Shown: positions 12,571 to 45,397 of the stretch, one piece after another | How positions within the stretch are numbered: the first letter of the stretch is position 1 | How the letters are laid out: the number at the start of each line of letters is the position of its first letter | Assembly: GCA_964348915.1 (NCBI GenBank) | Contig: CAYGEM010000002.1 | Coordinates: forward strand, 13,617 to 64,300 | DNA: 50,684 nt | DNA from: an uncultured Candidatus Saccharibacteria bacterium | Lineage (GTDB): Bacteria; Patescibacteriota; Minisyncoccia; UBA6257; Colwellbacteraceae | Reading direction: 5' to 3' | Translations under genes and position numbers: made by a program | The notes under the pieces: generated by a model | Told to the model about the DNA's origin: nothing | Databases searched by the model: none | What the model saw: the letters and a program-made list of their open reading frames with translations, nothing else

Positions 12571-13926
12571 ATGAAAATAAAGTTCTGCGGAGGAACGGGT
12601 GGAGTAACCGGATCGAATTATCTGCTGGAGAGCGAAGGAGCGAAGATTTTAATTGATTGCGGGCTGTATCAAGGCGGTTCGGACGTCGAACGGCTTAATT
12701 TTGAGCCCTTTCCTTACAATCCGGAGGAAATAGACGCGATTTTTTTGACCCACGCGCATTTAGACCATATTGGCCGGTTGCCGGTCCTTTTCAAAAAAGG
12801 ATTCCAGGGAAGAATTATCTCAACGCCGCCGACCAAGGATTTGGGCCGGGAGATATTGCTTGATGCCGGACATCTTTTTTCCGAACGCGCCGAGAAAGAA
12901 AGGGCGCCGGTTCTTTTTGATGATAAGGATATTGAAAAAACGATGTCTGCCTGGGAGACGGCCAAATACCGTGAAAAAATAACAATAAAAGACGTTGAGG
13001 TGAAATTTCACGATGCCGGCCATATTTTGGGCTCCGCTTTTATCGTTCTGACTGTCGACGGCGAGCAGGTCGTTTTTTCCGGCGATCTGGGAAACGCCCC
13101 GGCGCCTTTGGTTAAGGATATCGAACCGCTTGGAGAAGCGGACTATCTGGTGATGGAATCAACCTATGGCGGCCGGTGGCACGAGGATGCGAAGAATCGA
13201 AAGAATTTGCTAGAAGACGTAATCGAAAATACAGCCCTTTCGGGAGGCACTCTTATGATTCCGGCTTTTGCCATGGAGCGAACCCAGGCCTTGCTTTCGG
13301 AGATCAATGATCTGGTCTCTGCCGGACGGATTCCGGAAATGCCGGTTTTCGTCGATAGCCCGTTGGCCATAAATCTCACCGCGGTTTATAAAAAATATCT
13401 GGGTGACCCGGATTATTTCGACGCGGAAACAATCAAGGCCTCGAAAGAAGGAAAAGAGTTTTTCAATCTGGCCGGGCTTAAATTCACGCCTACGACCGAA
13501 GAGTCCAAGGCAATCAATGCCGTTCCGGCGCCGAAAGTGATAATCGCCGGTTCGGGTATGTCGCAGGGAGGCAGGATTATCCACCACGAATACCGTTATC
13601 TCTCGGACCCCAAAAGTACCATCCTTTTTATCGGATTTCAGACGACCGGTTCGCGGGGAAGGCGGATTCTCGAAGGGGTGAAAGAAGTGGAGATTTTTCA
13701 CGAGAGTATCCCGATTCGTTGCCGGGTGGAGAGCATTACCGGCTATTCGGCGCACGCCGACCAGGCCGGTTTACTTAAATGGATTATGCTGGCGAGAAGG
13801 TCTCTCCGGCGGGTATTCTTGGTGCACGGCGAAGAAAACGAATTAAAAATTCTGGAGCAGAAGGTGAGAGACGAGCTGGCGATCGAAACGAAAATTCCGA
13901 TTTTGGGAGAAGAGGTGGTATTATAA
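12571..13926 (+). CDS. Metallo-beta-lactamase / beta-CASP family RNA-metabolising hydrolase
   Basis: 451 aa. HAHLDHIG (HxHxDH), a later DAGHILGS, and the C-terminal GYSAHADQ typical of beta-CASP nucleases. Confidence 0.85.
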   Translation: MKIKFCGGTGGVTGSNYLLESEGAKILIDCGLYQGGSDVERLNFEPFPYNPEEIDAIFLTHAHLDHIGRLPVLFKKGFQGRIISTPPTKDLGREILLDAGHLFSERAEKERAPVLFDDKDIEKTMSAWETAKYREKITIKDVEVKFHDAGHILGSAFIVLTVDGEQVVFSGDLGNAPAPLVKDIEPLGEADYLVMESTYGGRWHEDAKNRKNLLEDVIENTALSGGTLMIPAFAMERTQALLSEINDLVSAGRIPEMPVFVDSPLAINLTAVYKKYLGDPDYFDAETIKASKEGKEFFNLAGLKFTPTTEESKAINAVPAPKVIIAGSGMSQGGRIIHHEYRYLSDPKSTILFIGFQTTGSRGRRILEGVKEVEIFHESIPIRCRVESITGYSAHADQAGLLKWIMLARRSLRRVFLVHGEENELKILEQKVRDELAIETKIPILGEEVVL

Positions 13927-23211: not shown

Positions 23212-24960
23212 ATGGATAACCGGAAAATCGCCCGAATTCTTGCGGAAATAGGCGAATATCTGGAGATGGCGGGAGAGAATTTCAAGCCGCGGGCTTACGA
23301 GAAAGCGGCGAATTCGGTTATTAATCTTGATGAAGAAGCAGGGTTGATTTACCGGCGGGGCGGGATAAAGGCCCTGGAGGAAATTCCCGGAGTCGGGCAG
23401 TCCATCGCCGAAAAGATAGAGGAGCTTATTAAAACCGGAAAATTGAAATATTACGAGAAATTAAAAAAAGCCGCGCCGGTTAATTTAACCGAATTAAGCA
23501 GAATTGAGGGGCTGGGCCCGAAAAAAATAAGAAAGCTCTACGACGAGATTGGCGTAAAAAGCGTTTCCGACCTGGAGAGGGCCGCCAAATCCGGCCGGAT
23601 ACGGACCGTCCCGGGATTCGGGGAGAAATCCGAAGAAGACATCCTCAAAGGAATCGAGTTTTTAAAAAAAAGCAAAGGCCGTTTCATCCTCGGCTTTATT
23701 ATGCCGGAGGTGAGAAAAATCGAAGAAGAATTGAAGAAATTATCCCTGGCCAGCCGGCTGGAGGTAGCCGGTTCGGTGAGGAGGATGAAAGAGACCATTG
23801 GCGATATCGACATCCTCGCCTCGGTCAAGGGAGGAAAGGACTTCGACCGGCGCGCCAAAAAAATGATGAGCGCTTTTACCTCGATGGATGAAGTCGAGCA
23901 TATTTACGCCGAAGGGCCGACACGCGCTTCGGTCCGGCTGAAATTAGGTTTGGACGCCGACCTGCGGGTGATTCCGGAGAGCTCTTACGGCGCCGCTCTT
24001 TTATATTTTACCGGCTCCAAAGATCACAACATCGCCTTGCGCAATATAGCCATAAAAAAAGGATGGAAACTTAACGAGTATGGTTTATTTAAGGGTCAAA
24101 AAATCATTGCCGGGAAAACCGAAGAGGAAATTTATGCCGCTTTGGGGCTTCAGTTTATTCCGCCGGAGATGCGCGAGAATACCGGCGAAATAGAACTGGC
24201 CGCGGAAGAAGAAATCCCCAAGCTTGTTGGCTATGATGATCTGCGGGGAGATCTCCAGATTCAGACGGATTGGACAGACGGTTCAAGCGGTATTGCCGAT
24301 TATGCCGAAGAAGCGATGGAAAAGGGATTGGAATATATTGCCATTACCGACCATACCAAGCATCTGGCCATGACTGGCGGCCTGGACGAAAAAAGATTGG
24401 CCAGCCAGGGCAAGGAAATAGACAAAATTAACAGCCGAATAAGAAAAGCGGGCAAACGGTTTCGGGTCCTCAAGGGGACGGAAGTGGATATTTTGAAAGA
24501 CGGCTCTCTTGATTTGAAAGACGAGGCATTGGCGAAACTCGATATCGTCGGCGCCGCCATCCACTCTTATTTTAATTTGTCCGAGGATGAACAGACCCGC
24601 CGGCTTATCCGGGCGATGGAGAATAAAAACGTCCATATAATTTTCCATCCGACCGGAAGGATAATCAACCGGCGCGAATCGATAAAATTGAATATCGACG
24701 AAGTGGTTCGGATGGCGAAAAAAACCGGCACGGTTTTGGAGATAGACGCTTATCCCGACCGACTCGACCTCAAGGATGACTTCGTAAAGAAGTGCGTTGA
24801 GGCCGGCGTGAAAATAAGCATTAATTCGGATAGTCATGAAGCCTGCCAGATAAAATATCTTTATCTTGGAATCGGCCAGGCGCGCCGCGGTTGGGCAAAA
24901 AAAAGCGACGTGATTAACGCCTGGCCGCTCGATAAAATGCTTTCTTTTTTGAAGAGGTGA
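23212..24960 (+). CDS. polX: Family X DNA polymerase with C-terminal PHP domain (PolX)
   Basis: 582 aa. HhH motifs IPGVGQSIAEKI and IEGLGPKKIRKL, nucleotidyltransferase motif GSVRRMKETIGDIDIL, and PHP domain DLQIQTDWTDGS...ITDHT. Confidence 0.9.
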   Translation: MDNRKIARILAEIGEYLEMAGENFKPRAYEKAANSVINLDEEAGLIYRRGGIKALEEIPGVGQSIAEKIEELIKTGKLKYYEKLKKAAPVNLTELSRIEGLGPKKIRKLYDEIGVKSVSDLERAAKSGRIRTVPGFGEKSEEDILKGIEFLKKSKGRFILGFIMPEVRKIEEELKKLSLASRLEVAGSVRRMKETIGDIDILASVKGGKDFDRRAKKMMSAFTSMDEVEHIYAEGPTRASVRLKLGLDADLRVIPESSYGAALLYFTGSKDHNIALRNIAIKKGWKLNEYGLFKGQKIIAGKTEEEIYAALGLQFIPPEMRENTGEIELAAEEEIPKLVGYDDLRGDLQIQTDWTDGSSGIADYAEEAMEKGLEYIAITDHTKHLAMTGGLDEKRLASQGKEIDKINSRIRKAGKRFRVLKGTEVDILKDGSLDLKDEALAKLDIVGAAIHSYFNLSEDEQTRRLIRAMENKNVHIIFHPTGRIINRRESIKLNIDEVVRMAKKTGTVLEIDAYPDRLDLKDDFVKKCVEAGVKISINSDSHEACQIKYLYLGIGQARRGWAKKSDVINAWPLDKMLSFLKR

Positions 24961-24996: not shown

Positions 24997-25491
24997 ATGC
25001 GAAAAGAGATTTCAGCCGGAATAATCGTCTATCGGATGGCGGAAAATAAACCCAGATTTTTGCTTCTTTATCACGGCGGAAAATATTGGAATTTTCCGAA
25101 AGGCCATATCGAGCCGCTTTCTCCTTTCGAGGGACAAGTCGCGTCTCAAAAAGAAAATGACATCCAGACCGCTTTTCGGGAGACGGAAGAAGAGACCGGC
25201 TTAAAAAAGAAAGACATTTTCATCCGGCGGGGGTTTAGGGCCAGCCAGCGTTATTGTTTCAAAAAGGGAACGGAGCAAATCTGCAAAACGGTGGTTTATT
25301 TTCTCGGTGAAACAAAGAAGACGCAAATTTCGGTTTCGGACGAACACGAGGGATACGGCTGGTTTGCCTACAACGAGGCCTTGGCGATACTTACGCGACA
25401 TAAAAACAATCAGCAGATGATAAGAAGGGTCCGGGCTTTTATCCGGGGGCCGAGACACAATCAGGCGAATATTACTTCAGAAAAGAAATAA
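24997..25491 (+). CDS. NUDIX hydrolase
   Basis: 164 aa. Nudix box GHIEP...AFRETEEETGL. Confidence 0.85.
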   Translation: MRKEISAGIIVYRMAENKPRFLLLYHGGKYWNFPKGHIEPLSPFEGQVASQKENDIQTAFRETEEETGLKKKDIFIRRGFRASQRYCFKKGTEQICKTVVYFLGETKKTQISVSDEHEGYGWFAYNEALAILTRHKNNQQMIRRVRAFIRGPRHNQANITSEKK

Positions 25492-27046: not shown

Positions 27047-27206
27047 AGGTAAATTATAGAATAATCTGTTCCTCGACTTGGTTCGACTTCGCTCACCATA
27101 AACCGCTCGGGGCACTCGATTCTTTTTGAGCAAGACAAATCAACCCAGATAACGTTTAAGTGGTTTACCACGAGTGAACCCCGAGTTTATCGAGGGGCGA
27201 ATCGAG

Positions 27207-27558
27207 TGGAGATGGCGGGAGTTGAACCCGCGTCCGAGGCGAGGCAAGAAAAATTTCTACAAGCTTAGCCGGATTGATTTGGAATCAAGGCCTTTAATCC
27301 GGCGAAAAAGCTTTGATTCTTTCGTCCTTTTTTTCGTCGGGAGAACGGACGATTTCTCCTGATATAGCTTAATTTATAACACCTTTAGGCCTTATCAAGC
27401 TTCGGGCCGGGCGGCGACTTTAAGCGTAGGCGTGAGCCGGAACTAAAGCCACAGTGCGATTTGAGTTGGCACTTTTTGTTTCGGAAAGTTTTTAAAGAGA
27501 TTCCCGAACTCTTGCTTGCCATTCTTCTTTTCGCGCTCCGTCGAGGCCTTGCATCCCC
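27207..27558 (-). ncRNA. ssrA: tmRNA (SsrA), one-piece, about 352 nt
   Basis: Minus strand. The 5' GGGGATGCAAGGCCTCGACGG pairs with the 3' ...GGACGCGGGTTCAACTCCCGCCATCTCCA, giving an acceptor stem with a G3:U70 pair and T arm GCGGG/TTCAACT/CCCGC. Tag ORF at 27470..27420: GCC AAC TCA AAT CGC ACT GTG GCT TTA GTT CCG GCT CAC GCC TAC GCT TAA = ANSNRTVALVPAHAYA*. Lies directly downstream of smpB. CCA not encoded. Confidence 0.9.
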
Positions 27559-28126: not shown

Positions 28127-29773
28127 ATGGTTGAGGAAATCGCTAATTTAATTCGGGAAGCGACCAAGGAGGAGGCAAAGATAACGATTCCGGAGGACCC
28201 GAAATTCGGCCATTATTCCACCAATCTCGCTTTTATCGTCGCCAAATATCGGGAGATGGATCCTGCGGCGGCGGCCAAGGAGTTGAAAGACAAAATTTAT
28301 AATTACGCGCCAAAAGGTTTTTTCGAGCGCATTGATATCGCTGGAGGATTCCTCAATTTTTTTCTCGGAGAAAAAACTTTGGAGAAAGAATTTGAAAAAA
28401 TATTGCGGGAAAAAGGGGAATACGGTGCTTCTTCTTCCGGCCGGGGGAAAACGATAGTCATCGATTATTCCGCGCCGAATATCGCCAAGCCGATGAACAT
28501 CGGGCATCTGCCTTCGACCATCATCGGCCAGGCCCTGGTTAATCTGTACAGATTTTCGGGTTACCGGGTTATTGGAGACAACCACCTGGGCGATTGGGGA
28601 ACGCAACTCGGCAGCCTTATCGCGGCCTACAAAAAATGGGGAGACAAGAAAGAATTCGCGGTTCGCCCGATTGACCATCTGGTCGGTCTTTATGTCCGAT
28701 TCCATCGGGAAGCGGAGGACGATGAGGAACTGGCCAAGGAAGCGCGCGAAGAGACAAGAAAACTTCAGGAGGGCGACAAAGAAAATCGGCGGTTATGGAA
28801 GCTGTTTGTAAAGGAGAGTTTGAAAGAATTCAATAAAATTTATCGGCGACTCGGCATAAAGTTTAATGTATCTTTGAGCGAGAGTTTTTATCAGCCGATG
28901 CTTAAGGGGATCGTTGATGAGGCGCTGGCGAGAGGAGTGGCCAGAAAAGATGACGGGGCAATTAAAATATCCTCCGATAGTTTGCCCGATTTCGTCATTC
29001 GGAAAACCAACGGTTCATTTCTGTATACCACTACCGATTTGGCCACAATAAAATACCGGGTGAAACGCTGGAATCCGCGGAAAATTCTTTATGTGGTGTC
29101 TAATGAACAAACGCTTCATTTCAGCCAGTTATTCGTTGCCACGGAAAAATTGGGTTATGCGCCCCAGGTTGAATTGGCCCACATTAAATTCGGCATGGTG
29201 CTTGGCGAATCAGGCAAGAAAATGTCCACCCGGCGCGGGGAATTCATCAAGCTCGAGGAAGTGCTGGACAAGGCGACGGGAAAAGCCGGAGAGATCAATA
29301 AGGCGGCGGCCGAGGAAGTGGGGATAGGCGCGGTGAAATATAATATTTTATCCCATGATCGGATGAGCGACATTGTTTTTGACTGGGAGAAGATGCTCGA
29401 TTTACGCGGCAATTCCGGGCCGTATCTCCAGTATGCCTATGCCCGCTGCCGGAGCGTTTTAAGAAAAGCCGGAAGATTTAGCAAGAGAGTCGGGATTGAT
29501 TTGCTGACCGCGGAGAGCGAAAAAGAATTATTGCGCGAGATATTATATTTTCCGGACGCTGTTTCTTTTGCCGCGGAGAATTACAGTGTGAACCACTTGA
29601 CTGATTATCTCTATCGACTTGCCGGAGCGATGAATAATTTTTACGAAAAAGAGCCGGTTCTCAAAGCCGAAAAAAATTTGAAGCAGGCGCGGCTCGCCTT
29701 GCTTTTCAGCGCAAGCGAAATTTTGAAAAAAGGATTGGAACTTTTGGGAATAAAGGTGGCGGAGAGGATGTGA
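28127..29773 (+). CDS. argS: Arginine--tRNA ligase
   Basis: 548 aa. SAPNIAKPMNIGHLPSTIIG (HIGH-type region), a DALR anticodon-binding C-terminus, and C-terminal ...ERM. Confidence 0.9.
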   Translation: MVEEIANLIREATKEEAKITIPEDPKFGHYSTNLAFIVAKYREMDPAAAAKELKDKIYNYAPKGFFERIDIAGGFLNFFLGEKTLEKEFEKILREKGEYGASSSGRGKTIVIDYSAPNIAKPMNIGHLPSTIIGQALVNLYRFSGYRVIGDNHLGDWGTQLGSLIAAYKKWGDKKEFAVRPIDHLVGLYVRFHREAEDDEELAKEAREETRKLQEGDKENRRLWKLFVKESLKEFNKIYRRLGIKFNVSLSESFYQPMLKGIVDEALARGVARKDDGAIKISSDSLPDFVIRKTNGSFLYTTTDLATIKYRVKRWNPRKILYVVSNEQTLHFSQLFVATEKLGYAPQVELAHIKFGMVLGESGKKMSTRRGEFIKLEEVLDKATGKAGEINKAAAEEVGIGAVKYNILSHDRMSDIVFDWEKMLDLRGNSGPYLQYAYARCRSVLRKAGRFSKRVGIDLLTAESEKELLREILYFPDAVSFAAENYSVNHLTDYLYRLAGAMNNFYEKEPVLKAEKNLKQARLALLFSASEILKKGLELLGIKVAERM

Positions 29774-33908: not shown

Positions 33909-36900
33909 ATGCTTTTCAAGTTCGATAAATTCGAATTAGCCAAAATCGAGGAGGAGGTTCTCGATTTTTGGAAAAAAAACCGGATTTTCGAGAAATCTCT
34001 GAAAAAAACACAGGGCCGGAAGAAATTCGTTTTTTACGAAGGGCCGCCTTACGCAAATGGTCTGCCGGGCGTCCATCATGTTCTCGCTCGCGTATTCAAG
34101 GATATCATCCTTCGTTACAAGTCCATGGCCGGATATTACGTGTCGCGCAAAGCCGGTTGGGACACGCACGGTTTGCCGATTGAGCTTGCTGTGGAAAAAG
34201 AATTGGGCTTCACTTCAAAGAAACAGATCGAAGAATTCGGTATCGACAAATTCAACCAAAAAGCGAAAGAGACCGCTTTCCGTTTCAAAGGGGAATTCGA
34301 AAAAATGACCGAGCGCATCGGTTATTGGCTTGATTTAAAAAATGCCTATATCACCTGCAGCAACGAATACATTGAAAAACTCTGGGGGGTGATGAAAAAA
34401 ATCTCCCAGCGGGGCTATTTCAAAAAAGATTACAAGATATTGCCGTGGTGCCCGCGCTGCGGAACGCCGCTTGCCTCCCACGAGCTTGCCCAGCCCGGCG
34501 CCTACAAAACAGTAACCGACCCGTCTCTTTTTCTGAAGTTTCCGGTGAAAGACGAGGAAGATACTTATTTTCTGGTTTGGACTACTACGCCTTGGACTCT
34601 GCCGGCGAACGTCTTTATCGCGGTCAACCCAAAATTAAAATATAAAAAATTCCGGATAGGGAAAGATTTTATCTGGTCGCAAGTTGTTCCGTCAGGCGCG
34701 AAAGCCGAGGATTTTGTCGAGGAGATTCTCGGTTCCGAGCTTGTCGGCCGGGAATACAAACCTCTTTTCGGGGAGGAATCTTCCGGTAAATACCAATTGG
34801 TGGAAGCGGAATTTGTTTCCGCGGAAGAAGGCACGGGTCTGGTTCATATCGCACCGGCTTTCGGCGAGGAAGACCTTAAGCTGGCCAAAAGAATCGGCTT
34901 GAAAGATTTCCCGACGACAGTAAGCGACAGCGGCAAGGTTGTCGGTCCTTATCCCGGCGAAGGCAAGTATATCAAGGAAGCGGACAAGGATATTATCGCT
35001 GATCTTACGGAGCGGGGATTGGTTTACGAGAGCGGAACAATCGAACACGAATATCCCCATTGCTGGCGTTCCGGCGACCCGCTTATTTATTTCGCCAGAA
35101 ATTCCTGGTTTATCGAGATGAGCCGCTTAAGAAAAGAATTGGTCGCGGCCAACGAACGAATCAACTGGATGCCCGAATACATAAAAGAAGGGCGGTTCGG
35201 CGAATGGATCAGGGAGGCGAAGGACTGGGCGATTTCGCGCGAACGCTATTGGGGAACGCCCTTGCCGATTTGGGAATGCGAAAAATGCGATAAGAGATTA
35301 TTCGTCGGTTCGGCGCTGGAATTCTCCAAATTAGCCGCTTCGTCCGGCAATCGTTATTTCATCATGCGGCACGGCGAAGCGGACTCCAATGTTTTCGATG
35401 TGGTTTCTTCTTCTCCGGAGAATATGGATATCAATCTGACAAAGAAGGGAATAGAACAGGTTAAGCGAGTTGCCGCGCGTTTTAAAAAGAAAGGCCTTGA
35501 CCTTATTTTTTCCTCGCCGATAAAACGGACGCGGGAGACGGCGGAGATGATTTCTAAGGAGACCGGTGCGCCGGTTATTTACGATAACCGCATTATTGAA
35601 TTCAATGTCGGTATTTTTAACGGCCGGCCAACCAAAGAAGTGCTGGATTTTGTTATTTCACAGGAAGACAGGTTTGCCGCGGTTCCGGAGAATGGGGAAA
35701 GTTTGAATGCCATCCGGGCGCGAATGATGTCTTTTACGGCCGAGCTCGAGCAAAAATACCAGGGTAAAAAAATTCTTATCGTGAGTCACGGCGAGCCGCT
35801 CTGGCTTTTGGAAGGCGCGAGTCAGGGAATGAACGAGGAAGAATTGATTGAATTGCGGGCGACTAAATACATTAATCCCGGAGAACTTCGAGAACTTAAA
35901 TATATGCGTTTGTCTTATAACCGGGAAGGATGTCTGGATTGGCACCGGCCCTATATTGATGAAGCCGAGCTCCATTGTCCAAAATGCCGCGGTAAGATGA
36001 ATCGCACGCCGGAGGTGGCGGACGTGTGGTTTGATTCCGGTTCGATGCCTTTCGCCGCCGGCTTCTACCCCGAATTTTTCCCGGCGGATTACATTTGCGA
36101 AGGCCTGGACCAGACCAGGGGCTGGTTTTACGTGCTTCTCGCCGTTTCGGTTCTTCTTAGAGAGAAGAACCCTTACAAGAATGTCATCTGTCTCGGATTG
36201 GTTTTGGATAAGCACGGCCAAAAAATGTCGAAATCCAAAGGAAATGTTGTCAGTCCAAACGAGATAATCGATAAATATGGCGCGGACGCTCTTCGGTGGT
36301 TTTTCTACACCACGAACGACCCGGGCGATCCCAAACGTTTTGACGAAAAGGATCTCGTGGAAGTCGCGCGCGGATTCTTTCTCATCATTTACAATATATT
36401 TTCTTTTTATCGGCTTTATGGCAAAGGGGCGGATTCGTCTTTGCGGTTTCAGCCGAAAAGGACTCTGGATAAATGGATTTTTAGCCGACTGCATGAAACG
36501 ATTTACGAGGTTACAGAGAGGTTGGAAAAATACGATATCGGCAATGCGGCCAGAAAAATCGCCGCGTTCACAGATGATTTGAGCCGCTGGTATTTACGCC
36601 GTTCGCGGACGCGGTTCCAGCGTCCGGGAAGCGAGAGGGATTTAATCGAGGCGTCAGCTTTGCTAAGAGAGTTGTTGCTCAAACTAAGCCAGCTTGTCGC
36701 TCCTTTCGCGCCATTTTTCGGCGAAGCCCTATTCAAGTCGCTTTCTTCCGATGAGTCAGTCCATCTTTCGGATTGGCCGGAAGCGGACAAAAAGATGATT
36801 GACGCGAAACTTTCCTCTTTGATGGCTGAAGCGCGAGATATCGCCACTAAAGCTTTGGCCAAACGAGCGGAGTCAGGCGTTAAGGTGCGACAACCGCTCG

Positions 36901-37307
36901 GCTCGCTCAAGATAAAGAAATCTTCCCTGCGCGGGAGCGAAGAGATTATCGAAATTCTAAAGGAAGAAATTAACGTCAAAGAAATAATTTTTGACGAAAT
37001 GGCCGAAGAAGATGTTTCTTTCGATCTAACCATCACGCCGGAGCTCAAAGAAGAAGGTCTTCGGCGGGAGTTCAGCCGGATGGTCCAGGAAATGAGGCAG
37101 AAAGCCGGTTTGCGCCCCGGAGAAGAAATTATCGTGGAGATGGAATCCTTTCCTGTTTTCGAACAGGCGGTCCGGGCCGGCGGCCGGAACTTGGCCAAAG
37201 TCATCTCGGCCCGGGAGATTGATTTTAAATTAAGCGATAAATTCGATTTGCGAACGGAAACGAAAACAGAAGGGGAGAAAATAATTTTGGGGATAAGAAG
37301 GATTTAG
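33909..37307 (+). CDS. ileS: Isoleucine--tRNA ligase carrying an inserted histidine-phosphatase-like domain
   Basis: 1132 aa. PPYANGLPGVHHVL (HIGH region), TTTPWTLPAN (editing domain), DWAISRERYWGTPLPIW, DVWFDSGSMP and KMSKSKGN. Residues ~480-660 instead read RYFIMRHGEADSN...SSPIKRTRETA...ILIVSHGEPL. Confidence 0.95.
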   Translation: MLFKFDKFELAKIEEEVLDFWKKNRIFEKSLKKTQGRKKFVFYEGPPYANGLPGVHHVLARVFKDIILRYKSMAGYYVSRKAGWDTHGLPIELAVEKELGFTSKKQIEEFGIDKFNQKAKETAFRFKGEFEKMTERIGYWLDLKNAYITCSNEYIEKLWGVMKKISQRGYFKKDYKILPWCPRCGTPLASHELAQPGAYKTVTDPSLFLKFPVKDEEDTYFLVWTTTPWTLPANVFIAVNPKLKYKKFRIGKDFIWSQVVPSGAKAEDFVEEILGSELVGREYKPLFGEESSGKYQLVEAEFVSAEEGTGLVHIAPAFGEEDLKLAKRIGLKDFPTTVSDSGKVVGPYPGEGKYIKEADKDIIADLTERGLVYESGTIEHEYPHCWRSGDPLIYFARNSWFIEMSRLRKELVAANERINWMPEYIKEGRFGEWIREAKDWAISRERYWGTPLPIWECEKCDKRLFVGSALEFSKLAASSGNRYFIMRHGEADSNVFDVVSSSPENMDINLTKKGIEQVKRVAARFKKKGLDLIFSSPIKRTRETAEMISKETGAPVIYDNRIIEFNVGIFNGRPTKEVLDFVISQEDRFAAVPENGESLNAIRARMMSFTAELEQKYQGKKILIVSHGEPLWLLEGASQGMNEEELIELRATKYINPGELRELKYMRLSYNREGCLDWHRPYIDEAELHCPKCRGKMNRTPEVADVWFDSGSMPFAAGFYPEFFPADYICEGLDQTRGWFYVLLAVSVLLREKNPYKNVICLGLVLDKHGQKMSKSKGNVVSPNEIIDKYGADALRWFFYTTNDPGDPKRFDEKDLVEVARGFFLIIYNIFSFYRLYGKGADSSLRFQPKRTLDKWIFSRLHETIYEVTERLEKYDIGNAARKIAAFTDDLSRWYLRRSRTRFQRPGSERDLIEASALLRELLLKLSQLVAPFAPFFGEALFKSLSSDESVHLSDWPEADKKMIDAKLSSLMAEARDIATKALAKRAESGVKVRQPLGSLKIKKSSLRGSEEIIEILKEEINVKEIIFDEMAEEDVSFDLTITPELKEEGLRREFSRMVQEMRQKAGLRPGEEIIVEMESFPVFEQAVRAGGRNLAKVISAREIDFKLSDKFDLRTETKTEGEKIILGIRRI

Positions 37308-38284
37308 AGCAGGCCCACCTTTTCTCTTATTTCGGCGAAATTCGGCCGGGCGATTTTGCTTGCTTTTTCCGCGCCGGACGACATTATCTCCGTGAGCAGA
37401 TTTTGATTGGAGGAAAAGTATTCAATTTTTTCGCGGATAGGCGCGAGAGCTTTAATAACGGCCTCGGCCAGGTCTTTTTTGAAACCGGCGTATTTTTTGT
37501 TCCGGTAGGAAGAGGTCAATTCGGTGATTTTGACGCCGGTCAATTCGCTGAAAATAAAAAGAAGATTGGAGAGACCGGGCTTTTTTTCCGGGTCGTAGAT
37601 TATTTCTTCGCCGGAATCGGTAACGGCAGTTTTTATTTTTTCCCGGATGGTTTCCGGAGAATCATTAAGAAAAAGACAGCCGCTCGGCAGTGATTTGGAC
37701 ATTTTCTTTTCCGGGTTATCCAAGCTTTTAATCCGCAGGCCTTCCATATAGAGGCCGACCGGTTCGGGAAAGGTTTTTCCGAAGCGGACATTGAAAACTC
37801 GGGCGATTTCTCTCGCGAGTTCAAGGTGTTGGCGTTGGTCTTCGCCGACCGGGACAAGGTTGGCTTTATAGAGCAGGATGTCGGCGGCCATCAGGACCGG
37901 GTAAGTAAGCAAGCCGGTATTGGGGATTTGGCCTTCGGAAATTTTCTCCCGGTACTCGATCATTCCCTGGAGTTTTCCGGCAGGAGTGATGGTGCTGAAT
38001 ATCCAAGCGAGATTAGCGTGTTCCGGCACGTGGGATTGCAGGAAAAACACGGATTTTTGCGGGTTGAGACCGAGAGCGAGAAGGGAAGCGAACATTTCCA
38101 AAATTTCCCCGCGTTTTTCCGGCGGAAGATATTTTTGCGTCAAAGAGTGGTAATCGGCGACGAAATAAAGGCAGTCGTATTTGTCGGTGTCTTGCAAAAG
38201 AAGGGCGGGCTTGATGGCGCCGAGATAATTGCCGATATGCAGTTTGCCGCTGGGTTTGAATCCGCTGACAACAATCGGTTTCAT
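37304..38284 (-). CDS. trpS: Tryptophan--tRNA ligase
   Basis: 326 aa. GKLHIGNYLGA and KKMSKS. Convergent 4-nt overlap with the ileS stop. Confidence 0.95.
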   Translation of the reverse strand: MKPIVVSGFKPSGKLHIGNYLGAIKPALLLQDTDKYDCLYFVADYHSLTQKYLPPEKRGEILEMFASLLALGLNPQKSVFFLQSHVPEHANLAWIFSTITPAGKLQGMIEYREKISEGQIPNTGLLTYPVLMAADILLYKANLVPVGEDQRQHLELAREIARVFNVRFGKTFPEPVGLYMEGLRIKSLDNPEKKMSKSLPSGCLFLNDSPETIREKIKTAVTDSGEEIIYDPEKKPGLSNLLFIFSELTGVKITELTSSYRNKKYAGFKKDLAEAVIKALAPIREKIEYFSSNQNLLTEIMSSGAEKASKIARPNFAEIREKVGLL

Positions 38285-38305: not shown

Positions 38306-39988
38306 TCACACCTCTATTATAACAGGAAGAATCATCGGCCGGCGATTGGTCTTGTTGTAAATATACTGGCCGATTTGGTCTCGGAACAGGGCCTTCAAGT
38401 AATCGGGGTCGATCGGCTGGTTGTGCGGAATGCGGCCGACGATGTTTTTAACTTTATCGCGAATATCAGAAAGAAGACGCTGATTCTCGCGAAGATAAAT
38501 AAAACCGCGCGAAATAATGTCGGGATTTTTGACTAACCGGCCGTTCCGGCTGCCCACCGCGGCGATAACCACGATCATGCCTTCCTGGGCGAGCAAGCGC
38601 CGGTCGCGCAGGACTACTTCGCCGACGTCGCCTACGCCCAAGCCGTCCACCATGACATAAGAAGCGGGTACGGTTTCGTCGAGTACTTTAATCTCGTTTT
38701 TGAGGATTTCCACCACTTGGCCGTTATCGACAACGAAGATATTTTTTCTGGGGATGCCGGCTTCGACGCCGTTTAAGGCGTTTTGCGAACGCATGAAGAA
38801 ATAGCCGTGTACTGGAAAGAAAAATTTCGGCTTCATCAGCTTGATGATTTCCTTGATTTCTTCCTGCGGGGCGTGACCGGAAGAATGGATGTCGACGATT
38901 TTCGAGTGATAAACAATGGCGCCCTGGCGGGAAAGATTGTCCTTGAGCACCTGGACGCTCTTCTCATTGCCGGGAATAACCGAAGAAGAGAAGATGAAAG
39001 TGTCGCCGGGCTTTACCCGCAAATGGCGATGTTCGCCGCTTATTACGCGCATCAAGCTCGCGTTCGGTTCTCCTTGGGCGCCGGTGGAAAGAATCATGAT
39101 TTTGTTGTCGTGGTACTTGTTAATCTCTTCGAGGGGTATAATTGTTCCTTTTTTCACTTTGATGTAACCGAGACGGGTCGCGGCATCGATATTCTCGCGC
39201 ATGGACCGGCCGGAAATGGCCACTTTCTTGCCCATTTTCTCGGCGATTTTCAGGATTTCCGAGATGCGGGTAAGCAACGAGGAGAAGATGCCGATGACAA
39301 TCCGGCCCTGGGCCTTTTCAAAAAGTTCCTCCAGGTTTTTCTCCACCACTCTTTCCGAGAGAGAGCGGCCGGGAGTTTCGGCGTTGGTGCTGTCGAGGAA
39401 AATGGTATGGACGCCCTGCTTGCTTATTTTCTTGAAATCATCCATATGGGCGGGGTTGCCCTTGGTGTCGTAATCGAATCTGAAATCGGAGAGATGGACT
39501 ATGTTGCCAACGGGAGTTTTCAGCAATATTCCGGTATTGTCGGGAATACTGTGGGAAACGCCGAAAAATTCCGCCTCGAAATATTGGGATAACTTTATTT
39601 TGTCGCCGCTTTTTATTTCCCTGATATTCAGCTTCGGGGCGTTCACAAACTCCTCCTGCCGTTTTTCCACCAGGGCTTTGGTCAGGGCCGTGGCGTAGAT
39701 GACCGGATTGCCGAGACGTTGGATAAGGTAGGGAATGGCGCCGATATGGTCGTAGTGGGCGTGAGTGAGCAAGACCGCCTTGATGCGTTCCTTCTTTGAT
39801 TCAAGATAGCTTACGTTCGGGATGATGTAGTCGATTCCCGGAGTTTCTTCTTCGGGAAACTGGAGGCCGATATCGAAAATGACAATTTCGTCTTTGTATT
39901 CGAAAAGCATCATGTTCCGGCCGATTTCTTCCAGCCCGCCGAGAGCGATACAGCGCATGGCCGATTCTTTTTGGTTTTTTGGAGGCAT
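38306..39988 (-). CDS. rnj: Ribonuclease J
   Basis: 560 aa. Beta-lactamase motif THAHYDHIGA, beta-CASP domain, and the C-terminal domain typical of RNase J. Confidence 0.9.
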   Translation of the reverse strand: MPPKNQKESAMRCIALGGLEEIGRNMMLFEYKDEIVIFDIGLQFPEEETPGIDYIIPNVSYLESKKERIKAVLLTHAHYDHIGAIPYLIQRLGNPVIYATALTKALVEKRQEEFVNAPKLNIREIKSGDKIKLSQYFEAEFFGVSHSIPDNTGILLKTPVGNIVHLSDFRFDYDTKGNPAHMDDFKKISKQGVHTIFLDSTNAETPGRSLSERVVEKNLEELFEKAQGRIVIGIFSSLLTRISEILKIAEKMGKKVAISGRSMRENIDAATRLGYIKVKKGTIIPLEEINKYHDNKIMILSTGAQGEPNASLMRVISGEHRHLRVKPGDTFIFSSSVIPGNEKSVQVLKDNLSRQGAIVYHSKIVDIHSSGHAPQEEIKEIIKLMKPKFFFPVHGYFFMRSQNALNGVEAGIPRKNIFVVDNGQVVEILKNEIKVLDETVPASYVMVDGLGVGDVGEVVLRDRRLLAQEGMIVVIAAVGSRNGRLVKNPDIISRGFIYLRENQRLLSDIRDKVKNIVGRIPHNQPIDPDYLKALFRDQIGQYIYNKTNRRPMILPVIIEV

Positions 39989-41956: not shown

Positions 41957-42288
41957 AGGGTATTGATAATTCCTATCAAAACGGCGGCAAGCAGAAGAGG
42001 AATCGTTCCGCTAATCATAATCGTTCCGGAAATATAATCAAGCAGACCGAGAATGACGGCGCTGATGACGATATTGAAGAGGCCGAAAGTGATAAGGACG
42101 AGCGGAATAAGAAGAATTTTCAGAACGGGCCGGAGGATGAGGTTTAAGAGGGTAAGGACGACGGCGAGAGCGATAATGGCGCCGATATTTTGGCTAAGGG
42201 AGACGCCCGGGATGAAGCGGCCGGCCAGATAAAGACCGAGAGTATTCGCGCCGACGAGGAAAATCAGTTTACTCAAAAATTTAAACAT
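41929..42288 (-). CDS. DUF360 / phage-holin-4-like small membrane protein (YvlD-like)
   Basis: Start trimmed to the ATG at 42288 (MFKFLSKLIFLVGANTLGLYLAGRFIPGV...). TAATG overlap with the gpmI stop. Four hydrophobic spans. Confidence 0.6.
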   Translation of the reverse strand: MFKFLSKLIFLVGANTLGLYLAGRFIPGVSLSQNIGAIIALAVVLTLLNLILRPVLKILLIPLVLITFGLFNIVISAVILGLLDYISGTIMISGTIPLLLAAVLIGIINTLCQRLLLSK

Positions 42289-43853
42289 TATTTCAGGAAG
42301 GGAAGAAGGCTTTGTCCGGTCATTTCCTCCGGTTTGTTGAGCCCCATTAATTCTAAAACAGTAGGAGCGATATCGCAAAGACTGCCGGAGACTTCTTTCT
42401 CGGCCGAGTCGACGAGCCGATCTTCTTTCGGTCGGCGGAACGACTCGGCGACGACATAGAAAGGAACCGGACTGGAATTGTGCATGGTCTCCGGGAGGCC
42501 GGTTAGGGGGTCGAGCAGGCGTTCGGCGTTGCCGTGGTCGGAAGTGATGATAAGAGTTGTGCCGGTTTTTAAAGCGGTATCCATAAGCTTCCCGACTTGT
42601 TCATCGATGACTTGCACTGCTTTCACCACGGCGTCGAAATTGCCGGTATGGCCGATAATGTCGGGGTTGGCGTAATTCGCCAAAATAAAGCCGTAAACTC
42701 CTTCTTCCATGGCCGAGATAATCCGGTTGGTGATATCTTCAGCCATCATTTCCGGGTATTTGTCCGGATTGGCGATTTTTCGGGAGGGAGCAATGGCGCG
42801 GTATTCGTTTGGGAAAGGATCTTCTCTCTTGGCATTGAAAAAATAAGTTACGTGCGCTCCTTTTTCGCTTTCGGCGACCCGGAGCTGAAGGATATTTGCT
42901 TTCGCGATTATTTCAGCCAGAGTGTTTTCTGGCCTGGGCCGGGGAAAGGCAACGGGAAGGGAAGGAAAATCTCGGCCGTAATCGGTAAAGGAGGCCATTT
43001 TTAAAGAAGGCATTTTTTCCATGAATATTTTAACCAGTTGGCGCATGCGTTCCTCGCGGAAATTGAAAAACAGCACGGCGTCATTTTCCTTGATTCCCCG
43101 AGCGGATGAAATCACGATTGGTTCGATAAATTCGTCGGTAACGCCGCGGTTGTAGCTTTCCTCCATCGCTTTTATCGGGTCGTTTGTTGTTTCCCCTTGG
43201 CCGGTCATGGCGGAGAAGGCGAGGGCGGTTCTTTCCAGGTGATTATCGCGGTCCATGGCGTAAAAACGGCCGGAGATGCTGGCGATTTTTTCCGCGGGCA
43301 GTTCGCGGACGAGATCAAGGCATTTTTTAGGCGAACCGTCGCGGCCGTCGGTAATCAGATGGAGATTGAAGTCGGGTAAATTATTTTGTCCGAGCATGGA
43401 GAGGAGGGCTCGGAGGTGTTCGAACGAAGAATGAACGTTGCTCTCGCCGATCAATCCGACGAGGTTCAATTTGGCGCCGGATTGTTTGGCGTAATTTATG
43501 AGATCGAGAATGGCGGGATTCCGGAAGAAGGAGCCGTCTTTTATCCCGTCGCTGATTCGCGGAAAATCTTGGAATATCACCTGGCCGGCGCCGATAGCCA
43601 GATGGCCGATTTCGCTATTGCCTTCTTCTTCCCAAGGAAGGCCGATGGCCAAGCCGGAGGCCTGGAGGCTGGTTATGGAAAAATTTTTCTTGATAAAACC
43701 GATATTTTGGGGTTGGGCCGCGTAAATGGGATTGGAGCCGTCCCGGGGTCCGTTTCCCCAGCCGTCCAGAATAACCAAAGCTATTTTGGCCGGAAGCAGT
43801 CCCTTTTTTGACAGCTCCCCGTTTTTAGCCGTATGATTAGAACTTAAGGTCAT
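42288..43853 (-). CDS. gpmI: 2,3-bisphosphoglycerate-independent phosphoglycerate mutase
   Basis: 521 aa. ILDGWG near the N-terminus, the GNSEIGHLAIGAG region, and C-terminal ITSDHGNAE. Confidence 0.9.
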   Translation of the reverse strand: MTLSSNHTAKNGELSKKGLLPAKIALVILDGWGNGPRDGSNPIYAAQPQNIGFIKKNFSITSLQASGLAIGLPWEEEGNSEIGHLAIGAGQVIFQDFPRISDGIKDGSFFRNPAILDLINYAKQSGAKLNLVGLIGESNVHSSFEHLRALLSMLGQNNLPDFNLHLITDGRDGSPKKCLDLVRELPAEKIASISGRFYAMDRDNHLERTALAFSAMTGQGETTNDPIKAMEESYNRGVTDEFIEPIVISSARGIKENDAVLFFNFREERMRQLVKIFMEKMPSLKMASFTDYGRDFPSLPVAFPRPRPENTLAEIIAKANILQLRVAESEKGAHVTYFFNAKREDPFPNEYRAIAPSRKIANPDKYPEMMAEDITNRIISAMEEGVYGFILANYANPDIIGHTGNFDAVVKAVQVIDEQVGKLMDTALKTGTTLIITSDHGNAERLLDPLTGLPETMHNSSPVPFYVVAESFRRPKEDRLVDSAEKEVSGSLCDIAPTVLELMGLNKPEEMTGQSLLPFLK

Positions 43854-43879: not shown

Positions 43880-45397
43880 ATGATTTACGTTATTTCATTA
43901 GCGGCCCTTGCCGCCGGTTTGGTTTCGGGTTACTTCGTTCGGCAGAATCTCGCCGCAAAGACCGCTAATTCTATCGAGAAAAGGCTGAGAGAGAAGGCAG
44001 AAGCCGCTGAACATGAGGCCAAAGACGTTGTTCTAAAAGCCAAAGACAGGGCCGCTTCTATTCTCGAAGAGGTCCGAAAAGAAGAAAAAGAAAAAGAAGA
44101 GGCGTTCAAACAAGCAGAGGGCCGTCTTTTGCGTAAGGAAGAAATATTGGAAAGACAGGAAGAGGAGACGAGAGAAAAAGAAGGAAAGCTTAAAGAAGGA
44201 GAAGTTTGTTTGGAAAAAAGCAAGCTGGAAGTCGAGAGGCAAAGAGAAATGGTCGGGGTGGAGCTTTCGCGCATAAGCGGTTTGACTCCCGAACAGGCCA
44301 AAGAAAAATTGATCAAACAAGTGGAAGAGCAGGGCCGCGAAGAATTGACGGGATTGCTTCAGAAAATCGAAAAAAACAAAAGGGAAGAGGTGGAGAAAAA
44401 AGGAGTGGAGATTATTACCACCGCTCTCCAGAGATATGCCCGCTCCAACGTCTCGGATATTACTACGACGGCATTTCCATTGCCAAGCGAGGACCTGAAA
44501 GGAAAGATTATCGGTAAGGAAGGCCGGAATATCAAGACTCTGGAACGGCTGACCGGAGCGGAGCTTATCATCGATGAAACGCCGGATACCATTCTCATTT
44601 CTTCGTTCGACCCGTTCCGTCGGGAAATAGCCAAAATGACTTTGGAAAAATTGATCAAGGACGGCCGAATCCAACCGGCGAAGATTGAGGAGAAGGTGGA
44701 AGAATCGCGGGCAGAACTGGAAAAAAGGATCGTTCAGATTGGCGAAGAAGCGGTTTACGAAGTGGGTATTCTGGATTTGCCGCCGGAGCTGATAAAACTT
44801 CTCGGCCGTTTGAATTTCCGTACCAGTTTCGGCCAGAGCGTTCTCAACCATTCGGAGGAAACGGCGTACATCGCGAAGATGATTGCTGAAGAACTGGGCT
44901 TAAATGTCGAGGTAGTCAAAAAAGCGGCTTTGCTTCATGATATCGGCAAGGCCATCGACCACGAAGTTTCCGGAAATCATGTGGAATTGGGCATGAAGAT
45001 TCTGAAGAAATACGGTATTTCGGAAAAGATTATCGAGGCGATGCAGTCCCATCACGAGGACTATCCTTTCGCTTCGCCAGAGGCCTATATCGTGGCTACG
45101 GCGGATATTCTTTCCGCGGCCAGACCGGGTGCCAGAAGAGGAACGCTTGAAAATTACATCAAACGTTTGGCCGATTTGGAAAAAATCGCCTCCGGTTTTA
45201 AAGGGGTCAAGGCTTCTTACGCGGTTTCCGCCGGACGCGAGCTTAGAATATTCGTGGTTCCGGAGAAGATAGACGATTTCGGCGCCTTGTCTTTGGCCAA
45301 AGAAATCGCCAATCGTATCGAAGCCGAGTTAAAATATCCGGGAGAAATCAAGGTGAACGTTATCCGGGAAGTGCGGGCGGTGGAATACGCGCGTTAA
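43880..45397 (+). CDS. rny: Ribonuclease Y
   Basis: 505 aa. N-terminal TM anchor, K/E-rich coiled coil, KH domain GKIIGKEGRNIKTLE, and HD domain AALLHDIGKA. Confidence 0.95.
   Translation: MIYVISLAALAAGLVSGYFVRQNLAAKTANSIEKRLREKAEAAEHEAKDVVLKAKDRAASILEEVRKEEKEKEEAFKQAEGRLLRKEEILERQEEETREKEGKLKEGEVCLEKSKLEVERQREMVGVELSRISGLTPEQAKEKLIKQVEEQGREELTGLLQKIEKNKREEVEKKGVEIITTALQRYARSNVSDITTTAFPLPSEDLKGKIIGKEGRNIKTLERLTGAELIIDETPDTILISSFDPFRREIAKMTLEKLIKDGRIQPAKIEEKVEESRAELEKRIVQIGEEAVYEVGILDLPPELIKLLGRLNFRTSFGQSVLNHSEETAYIAKMIAEELGLNVEVVKKAALLHDIGKAIDHEVSGNHVELGMKILKKYGISEKIIEAMQSHHEDYPFASPEAYIVATADILSAARPGARRGTLENYIKRLADLEKIASGFKGVKASYAVSAGRELRIFVVPEKIDDFGALSLAKEIANRIEAELKYPGEIKVNVIREVRAVEYAR

Follow-up and report, generated by a model that had tools for sequence, protein, structure and literature searches.

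A complete histidine phosphatase nested in the isoleucyl-tRNA synthetase of Patescibacteria

The ileS gene carried by a 50,684-nucleotide stretch of Colwellbacteraceae DNA (contig CAYGEM010000002.1; the whole stretch is referred to here as the window) encodes a single polypeptide holding two enzymes, an isoleucyl-tRNA synthetase (IleRS) and a histidine phosphatase. Few enzymes are as highly conserved as the aminoacyl-tRNA synthetases; additional catalytic domains nested within them are uncommon and, where they occur, tend to go with new biology, for example editing or signalling. The sequence data show that the window protein is a genuine, conserved synthetase and probably a bifunctional one. 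In hundreds of Patescibacteria species, the one IleRS that is visible has a catalytically intact phosphatase of this family within it or encoded next to it, and the phosphatase recurs in valyl-tRNA synthetase (ValRS), TsaC and ATP sulfurylase; this pattern suggests that the adenylate chemistry of organisms with minimal metabolism includes an accessory step not recognised so far. The overall explanation that we favour, with somewhat better than even confidence, is that a complete phosphatase from an ileS-linked family has become nested in the synthetase, where it would act as a tethered accessory phosphohydrolase.

A histidine phosphatase in the zinc-knuckle loop of a type-2 IleRS

The inserted segment belongs to branch 1 of the histidine phosphatases; it is complete, resembles the short PhoE/PspA/CobC form and has the full catalytic set. 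An earlier interpretation made from the DNA letters alone (the sequence-only reading) had proposed a complete histidine-phosphatase module nested in IleRS, and this was borne out: scores of the insert against Pfam His_Phos_1 (PF00300) spanned 120–124 bits (E 1e-34 to 6e-36), all catalytic residues were found, the four motifs that it named are present (RHGE, residues 487–490; SSPIKRTRETA, containing R540; IIEFNVG, containing E564; and SHGE, containing H627), and the codon positions that it assigned to His488 and His627 are correct (Table 1). The Pfam match spans profile positions 2–168 of 194; the insert nevertheless reaches its natural C-terminus (GELRELK, residues ~659–666), as judged from free-standing homologues of ~190 residues, whose C-terminus corresponds to the final strand of the insert at 660–663. 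In alignment, E564 falls on the catalytic Glu that PspA (4IJ5) carries in its 'RIIEID' segment; this position is E or D in nearly all copies of the family, and R487-H488 is kept in every tandem, embedded and free-standing copy examined. The whole R-H-R-E/D-H set was present in nearly all of the 185 domains sampled from these three forms, including every tandem copy. Judged from these alignments, the catalytic residues of the insert are under clear constraint, and a catalytically active phosphatase is a reasonable reading of it.

Structure prediction gave a corresponding picture. The insert modelled alone with AlphaFold2 gives a confident alpha/beta/alpha fold (predicted local distance difference test (pLDDT) score 91.8, predicted template modelling (pTM) score 0.89), and Foldseek placed this model close to PspA (4IJ5/4IJ6, TM score 0.79), PhoE (1H2E, 0.81) and CobC (6NRU/6E4B, 0.79–0.80), with GpgP also near. 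The sequence search agreed with Foldseek on a short PhoE/PspA/CobC-like form.

By contrast, the description of the module as PGAM-type, with its implication of mutase-like activity, was not supported. The insert fell below every cutoff for cofactor-dependent phosphoglycerate mutase (dPGM), PspA and CobC in NCBIfam. By score, the best NCBIfam match was the archaeal dPGM model NF038349 (dPGM_arch), at 88–92 bits versus a cutoff of 225; TIGR01258 gave 34–41 bits (cutoff 81.7), and PRK14115 and the remaining dPGM models were far under cutoff. The PspA model gave 79–84 bits (cutoff 350) and the CobC model TIGR03162 gave 82–86 bits (cutoff 162.9). At ~190 residues, the insert is without the C-terminal tail that closes the active site in dPGM proper (~230–250 residues), and dPGM structures cover the insert model less well (target-normalised TM score 0.55–0.63). 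A cofactor-independent phosphoglycerate mutase (iPGM) is moreover encoded in the window, so that the insert need not serve glycolysis as a mutase; this, together with the missed dPGM cutoffs, led to the rejection of such a role.

The IleRS part of the polypeptide is a complete, apparently functional type-2 enzyme, as judged from its sequence. It scored 869.6 bits against the NCBIfam ileS model TIGR00392 (cutoff 621.4), the match falling into two stretches that flank the insert, and Pfam tRNA-synt_1 (E 2e-112) was likewise matched in two stretches with His_Phos_1 between them. Anticodon_1 covers residues 854–997, and a DUF5915-type C-terminus is also present. The connective peptide 1 (CP1) editing motifs WTTTPWTLPAN (residues 224–234) and GTGLVHIAP (308–316) are in place, and both are invariant or nearly so in the alignment. 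An AlphaFold2 model of the full-length protein, made with a 69-sequence alignment, had a mean pLDDT of 90.5 and a pTM of 0.83, with no segment below 50, and it superposed on P. megaterium IleRS2 (PmIleRS2; 8C8V, TM score 0.84, target-normalised) and on the T. thermophilus enzyme (1ILE, 0.91). The 50-kb window contains no second ileS. As had been argued from the sequence, the gene is not a pseudogene: the open reading frame (ORF) is uninterrupted, the motifs and domains are intact, and the 120 listed homologues share the architecture.

The further statement that the HIGH-like and KMSKS motifs are intact stands for KMSKS, whereas HIGH reads GVHH, a recognised IleRS2 variant. This sequence shows the (G/A)XHH swap, at positions 1 and 3 of HXGH, that marks mupirocin hyper-resistant IleRS2; the GXHH signature has been tied to this hyper-resistance in IleRS2 by Brkic et al. 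(PMC10485003). The signature suggests that insert-bearing IleRS may be intrinsically mupirocin-resistant too. The remaining six of the 121 insert-bearing homologues have HxGH, reverted or retained.

The position of the insert was defined by alignment of both of its flanks. The window IleRS through WECEKC...GSALEFSKLA aligns to residues 401–478 of PmIleRS2 (8C8U), and from residue ~656 (NPGELRELKYMRLSYNREGCLDWHRPYIDE...) it aligns to residues 467–581; the window protein therefore has ~180–190 extra residues. The spacing from CEGC to HKPYVD in 8C8U is ~25 residues, versus ~215 from CEKC to HRPYID in the window IleRS, and in IleRS of the window subtype without an insert (from loci L081 and L085; ~51% identity over ~920 residues) the gap is 8–10 residues versus ~192. 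The expectation that reference enzymes have only a short linker here was thus correct. Placement of the insert in the catalytic core was not, and a position next to the aminoacylation site was not supported either: the synthetase is interrupted in a surface loop, that of the second zinc knuckle (CxxC...CxxC, formed by C457/C460 and C690/C693). This point is equivalent to PmIleRS2 residues ~467–478; the catalytic HUP core has its second part at PmIleRS2 residues 513–632 (PMC10485003). The insert therefore lies in the connective region, outside the Rossmann core proper. The linker blocks around it are conserved and have pLDDT values of 88–93 in the full-length model, and GC content and skew run smoothly across the insert with no break.

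Distribution, a free-standing partner gene and apparent repeated capture

The same insertion was found in homologues from many sources. All of the 120 best protein clusters retrieved with the full-length query hold IleRS domains together with PF00300 (96%–49% identity, 1119–1214 residues). Their source names are Patescibacteria, Parcubacteria, Colwellbacteria, Liptonbacteria, Minisyncoccota and Paceibacterota, and the usual database name of insert-bearing proteins is 'class I tRNA ligase family protein'. A scan of GTDB, taking one genome per species and using the motif [IV][VI][SG]HG[DE]PLW (derived from embedded sequences only), identified 364 species loci that encode a relative of the insert. 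Among the best 80 of these 364, the relative lay in an IleRS-sized ORF (~1150–1260 residues, or fragments at contig ends) in ~75, was free-standing in four and was masked in one. Many GTDB records with a Parcubacteria-type IleRS (L005, L014, L016–L018, L020, L051 and others) are titled 'uncultured Candidatus Saccharibacteria', 'Gammaproteobacteria', 'Acutalibacteraceae' or 'Binatia'; these titles look automatic or mis-binned and are unfit for inferring distribution. An assembly artefact was ruled out by the conservation across samples together with the smooth base composition. An origin in a defence system or mobile element was also rejected: PADLOC gave no matches for either the insert or the whole protein, and Pfam detected no intein domains.

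Over its full length the insert can be aligned with free-standing Patescibacteria proteins of ~190 residues; these form a large family whose members begin M..N.YF.LRHG and end GELR.L(N/K), where the insert ends GELRELKY. In all nine loci of the ileS-linked branch with downstream sequence (L022, L043, L080, L081, L082, L083, L084, L085 and L088), the free-standing gene stands directly upstream of an insert-less ileS. The partnered IleRS proteins are 938–977 residues long, and their genes start anywhere from a 4-bp overlap with the phosphatase gene to 41 bp past its stop. The usual gene order is smpB, argS, phosphatase, ileS, recO; the argS, free-standing phosphatase, ileS order was seen in L043, L081–L083, L085 and L088, and in L080 and L084 another gene lies upstream with the phosphatase–ileS pair still kept. 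The partnered enzymes belong to three IleRS subtypes, with HIGH regions GPITANNPMGVHH, GPPYANGLPGIHH (the subtype of the window) and PPFATGKPHYGH. In an example from Pacebacteria, 1.6 kb separates the phosphatase from the ileS downstream of it.

Across 88 fetched loci and the window, exactly one copy of the family, embedded or free-standing, was present in 88 of 89, the exception (L053) having one additional distant His_Phos protein; a tblastn search of the window found no second phosphatase copy besides the insert itself. Within the sequences examined, a locus carries the free-standing gene or the insert, never both. In a neighbour-joining tree of 185 domains, embedded copies and ileS-adjacent free-standing copies fell largely into separate clades (55/71 and 81/90), although the tree is crude and fixes neither the number of insertion events nor whether insertion or excision came first. 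The phosphatase is conserved in genomic and physical association with IleRS.

Capture of this subfamily does not appear to be limited to the zinc-knuckle site. In a survey of the 150 best cluster representatives at 50% identity, 57 were free-standing and ~87 were IleRS proteins, or pieces of them, in which the insert occupies the junction seen in the window protein. Several IleRS enzymes with an HYGH motif contain two or three catalytically intact His_Phos_1 domains (P0167, P0182, P0252, P0195, P0221 and P0129). These include canonical-HYGH enzymes with two tandem copies at the zinc-knuckle site (P0167, of 1468 residues, and P0182, named Candidatus Peribacteria), enzymes with copies elsewhere, between DCWFESG and DQTRGWF and after KMSKS (P0195 and P0221; a member of the P0195 cluster sits on a 1.06-Mb contig), and one with three copies (P0129). 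A ValRS carries one copy at the site equivalent to that in IleRS (P0231, whose cluster includes a protein named valyl-tRNA synthetase), and a ValRS fragment of 1161 residues has four tandem copies (P0121). Beyond the synthetases, two clusters (P0178 and P0215) are fusions of the phosphatase with TsaC/Sua5 (threonylcarbamoyl-AMP synthase), and one (P0199; three members, on contigs of 12–114 kb) is a phosphatase–PUA–ATP sulfurylase fusion in which the general-acid position is Gln rather than Glu. When the TsaC and ATP sulfurylase (Sat) fusion domains served as seeds of a profile search, only free-standing proteins were returned. Taken together, these architectures suggest that the subfamily has been captured repeatedly, by IleRS at at least four sites, by ValRS, by TsaC/Sua5 and by ATP sulfurylase.

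More distant free-standing relatives occur in polysaccharide-synthesis clusters (the P0409 locus and L086), where the gene of one runs into the beginning of a sulfotransferase gene; this overlap hints at a role for that distant branch related to adenosine 3',5'-bisphosphate (pAp) or 3'-phosphoadenosine 5'-phosphosulfate (PAPS). Another free-standing protein with two tandem His_Phos_1 domains (P0191) is named Candidatus Woesearchaeota archaeon and was found on 16 contigs, so the phosphatase family extends to DPANN archaea.

Proposed function and alternative explanations

If the insert follows the chemistry of its family, H488 would attack the terminal phosphate of the substrate to give a phospho-histidine intermediate, R487, R540 and H627 would hold the phosphate, and E564 would protonate the leaving group. 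The fusion partners IleRS, ValRS, TsaC and ATP sulfurylase may be viewed as sharing one reaction type, in that all turn ATP into an adenylate and release inorganic pyrophosphate (PPi). Because the partner set makes adenylates and releases PPi, and because the IleRS of SR1 bacteria carries a Nudix domain, of the nucleotide pyrophosphohydrolase type, we read the insert as a possible accessory phosphohydrolase tethered to adenylate-forming enzymes, which would clear a phosphate-bearing product or by-product; drawn as it is from the partner set, this functional class is put forward tentatively, as a little short of an even chance. The simplest candidate substrate would be PPi, with AMP, pAp, adenosine tetraphosphate (p4A) or the 3'-phosphorylated A76 end of tRNA as alternatives, and any one of these taken singly is unlikely to be the right one. 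That the two enzymes work together is probable. A wider proposal, which we consider rather doubtful, is that the family forms a set of tethered product-clearing modules specific to the candidate phyla radiation (CPR) and DPANN, perhaps with the activity of a non-canonical pyrophosphatase or of a phosphatase for adenine nucleotides. If it were true, ultra-small symbionts would couple product removal physically to the synthetase, and the insert would represent a new functional class of domain appended to aminoacyl-tRNA synthetases.

Several observations weigh against an accessory hydrolase of this kind. Inherited synteny (smpB-argS-X-ileS-recO), as opposed to selection for a functional link, could account for much of the adjacency to ileS. 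A fusion of the phosphatase with ArgRS (P0139) does not count as independent evidence, because it is a plain stop-codon read-through of neighbouring genes. The relatives in glycan clusters mean that the wider family is not tied exclusively to PPi-releasing enzymes. PPi hydrolysis is documented for a branch-2 member of the histidine-phosphatase superfamily (PMC7926622), and for branch 2 alone, not branch 1; the PPi or nucleotide idea comes solely from the set of fusion partners, no substrate-specific residue being assignable from the sequence. Finally, at least one Parcubacteria/OD1 genome (RAAC4) has a membrane PPi-energised pump and Peribacteria encode a pyrophosphatase (PPase), according to the literature. 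With the RAAC4 membrane PPase, a hydrolase that wastes PPi is not obviously needed, which weakens the PPi idea without killing it.

The main rival is an independent housekeeping phosphatase, which would act on an unrelated small metabolite and would have been fused through operon adjacency in streamlined CPR genomes, with no coupling to isoleucylation. This is a less than likely explanation, although a substantial one. It fits with the closest characterised relatives, PspA, PhoE, CobC and GpgP, being broad or metabolic small-molecule phosphatases, with most adjacency cases lying in the one synteny block and possibly reflecting vertical inheritance, and with both the ArgRS read-through and the distant relatives in glycan clusters. 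However, adjacency survives a different upstream gene and three IleRS subtypes, and simple read-through cannot put an upstream neighbour into an internal loop. Independent insertion at at least four IleRS sites and in ValRS, sometimes with two to four catalytically intact copies, is also at odds with it, and the conserved, confidently modelled linkers suggest fixed docking over a loose tether. A phosphatase acting on tRNA 3' ends is improbable. Such an enzyme would strip a 3'-phosphate, a phosphate derived from a 2',3'-cyclic end or a pyrophosphate from A76 of tRNA-Ile, with the purpose of recharging damaged or toxin-modified tRNA. In its favour, the chemistry of a 3'-phosphorylated A76 is that of an adenosine 3',5'-bisphosphate end, relatives are found with ATP sulfurylase and beside a sulfotransferase, where pAp/PAPS chemistry applies, the partners include the tRNA enzymes IleRS, ValRS and TsaC, and the RtcB encoded in the window indicates that RNA 3'-phosphate ends are handled in this organism. 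Yet all tRNAs would need such repair, not those of IleRS specifically, two to four copies would be hard to account for, and the architecture is the capped, small-substrate form of PhoE/PspA rather than an open cleft for binding protein or RNA; we know of no branch-1 histidine phosphatase that acts on RNA ends.

The remaining explanations carry far less weight. Nested domains often serve as allosteric modules, and in the model the phosphatase appears rigidly embedded in the synthetase, as a regulatory ligand sensor or pseudo-enzyme might be if it bound a phosphorylated metabolite and tuned IleRS allosterically with little or no turnover. This is very improbable, given that all five catalytic residues are conserved across embedded, tandem and free-standing forms and that free-standing homologues are without anything to regulate in cis. 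A true PGAM, that is, a glycolytic dPGM fused to IleRS, can point to the archaeal dPGM model as the top NCBIfam match, but the scores against that model and TIGR01258, the short form without the dPGM tail and the iPGM in the window make it extremely unlikely. Nothing but the unusual architecture speaks for an assembly chimera, an intein or a functionless mobile-element insertion, and with the same junctions recurring in 120 protein clusters that come from independent assemblies, as well as across hundreds of GTDB species, no break in base composition, no intein or defence-system matches, and constrained catalytic residues, its probability is close to nil. Whichever function applies to the phosphatase, its natural separate-gene, nested and multi-copy forms offer a matched series for studying domain insertion into an essential enzyme.

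Genomic neighbourhood and comparison with known systems

The features of the window that bear on this analysis are collected in Table 1.

Table 1. Features of the window IleRS, its nested phosphatase and the surrounding genes (positions are those of the window; residues are those of the window IleRS).
Feature	Residues	Position	Strand	Basis or conservation
ileS, type-2 IleRS with nested phosphatase domain		33909..37307	+	Uninterrupted ORF, 1132 aa
GVHH, non-canonical HIGH (GXHH) motif of IleRS2	54-57	34068..34079	+	(G/A)xHH in 115/121 homologues
CEKC, first half of the insert-hosting zinc knuckle	457-460	35277..35288	+	C457 in 116/121 and C460 in 98/121 homologues; aligns to CEGC of 8C8U
Inserted module, complete ~190-aa histidine phosphatase plus short linkers	~477-668	35337..35912	+	Boundaries from the gap versus insert-less L081/L085 IleRS
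Pfam His_Phos_1 (PF00300) match	484-648	35358..35852	+	E 1.3e-34, 120 bits, gathering cutoff 21.7
R487-H488 of the RHG motif; H488, predicted phospho-accepting nucleophile	487-488	35367..35372 (H488, 35370-35372)	+	Invariant in 121/121 homologues
R540, second phosphate-binding Arg	540	35526..35528	+	120/121 homologues
E564, predicted general acid	564	35598..35600	+	At least 90% of the 69-sequence alignment
H627, second catalytic His (family motif SHG(D/E)PLW)	627	35787..35789	+	Invariant in 121/121 homologues
CPKC, second half of the zinc knuckle	690-693	35976..35987	+	C690 and C693 invariant in 121/121 homologues
KMSKS, class I signature loop	772-776	36222..36236	+	K, M, S, K invariant; last S in 117/121 homologues
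RtcB RNA ligase, joins RNA 3'-phosphate or 2',3'-cyclic-phosphate ends		7160-8575	+	PF01139, E 4e-167
Three RNA-degradation genes		12571-13926; 38306-39988; 43880-45397	+; -; +	
PolX-PHP		23212-24960		Synteny with locus L082
NUDIX gene, separate from ileS		24997-25491		
tmRNA		27204-27558	-	Tag ANSNRTVALVPAHAYA
argS, syntenic landmark		28127..29773	+	Pfam tRNA-synt_1d, DALR_1, Arg_tRNA_synt_N
iPGM		42288..43853	-	Pfam Metalloenzyme and iPGM_N

In the window, argS lies 4 kb upstream of ileS and is separated from it by four genes, encoding an orotidine 5'-monophosphate (OMP)-decarboxylase-like protein, an unknown protein, an S-adenosylmethionine (SAM) methyltransferase and an RluA-type pseudouridine synthase, the last of which is the immediate upstream neighbour of ileS. 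The window order of PolX-PHP, NUDIX, tmRNA and argS mirrors that of L082, where PolX and NUDIX are followed, after other genes, by smpB, argS, phosphatase and ileS. On the other side, ileS (+) and trpS (-, 37304-38284) converge, their 3' ends overlapping by 4 nt (37304-37307) with both stops included, and there is no space for a terminator between them. The window is rich in RNA metabolism: three RNA-degradation enzymes (a beta-CASP/RMMBL nuclease, RNase J and RNase Y) are encoded within 50 kb, together with RtcB, tmRNA, argS, ileS and trpS, and rRNA/tRNA modification enzymes.

The sequence-only reading was aware of no described aminoacyl-tRNA synthetase with this domain, but one had been reported. 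Kantor et al. (2013; PMC3812714) noted that in the IleRS of SR1 (RAAC1) and ACD80 two phosphoglycerate-mutase domains and a Nudix domain split the enzyme into four regions. Those proteins resemble the window protein as CPR IleRS ORFs interrupted by domains of the phosphoglycerate-mutase (His_Phos_1) family, whereas the window protein has one His_Phos_1 domain at a single, zinc-knuckle site and no NUDIX match in Pfam. The report is a single descriptive sentence, without analysis of catalytic residues, distribution or function, and it was the sole mention found; in full-text literature searches, no paper analysing a histidine phosphatase within an aminoacyl-tRNA synthetase came up. As far as found, there is no description of the single-insert zinc-knuckle form that dominates Parcubacteria, of the derivation of the insert from a gene paired with ileS in an operon, of the conservation of its catalytic residues or of its recurrence in other adenylate-forming enzymes.

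Set against enzymes of the IleRS2 GXHH type (Deinococcus; P. megaterium, 8C8U/8C8V, PMC10485003), the window protein has the same fold, the DUF5915-type C-terminus, the zinc knuckle and, as GVHH, the variant signature, and it differs in the length of the knuckle loop given above. The short branch-1 phosphatases PspA (4IJ5), PhoE/YhfR (1H2E/1EBB), CobC (6NRU/6E4B) and GpgP (Rv2419c, 4PZ9) match the insert in structure (TM score 0.77–0.81), in size (~190–210 residues) and in the R-H-R-E-H set. They are, however, only 22–28% identical to it, all NCBIfam equivalog cutoffs are missed, and the insert family has motifs of its own (NxYF(I/L)xRHGE, SHGDPLW and a C-terminal GELRxL), is found in Patescibacteria/DPANN-type organisms only and is tied to ileS. 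The RNase H–CobC-like acid phosphatase Rv2228c/PRK07238, the second-best NCBIfam match, likewise joins a nucleic-acid enzyme to a short His_Phos_1 domain, but as an end-to-end fusion with another partner, and the insert reaches 85–89 bits against its cutoff of 326. A precedent for an IleRS with an extra enzymatic domain is NCBIfam NF040702 ('ileS_w_GNAT'); there the inserted enzyme is an N-acetyltransferase, and the window protein scores 299 bits against a cutoff of 1999, from the shared IleRS parts only.

In some eukaryotes, ATP sulfurylase is fused to a pyrophosphatase. The arrangement is comparable in that an adenylyltransferase that releases PPi is covalently joined to an enzyme by which this product is cleared; the joined enzyme there is a canonical family I PPase, whereas in the window protein it is a histidine phosphatase.

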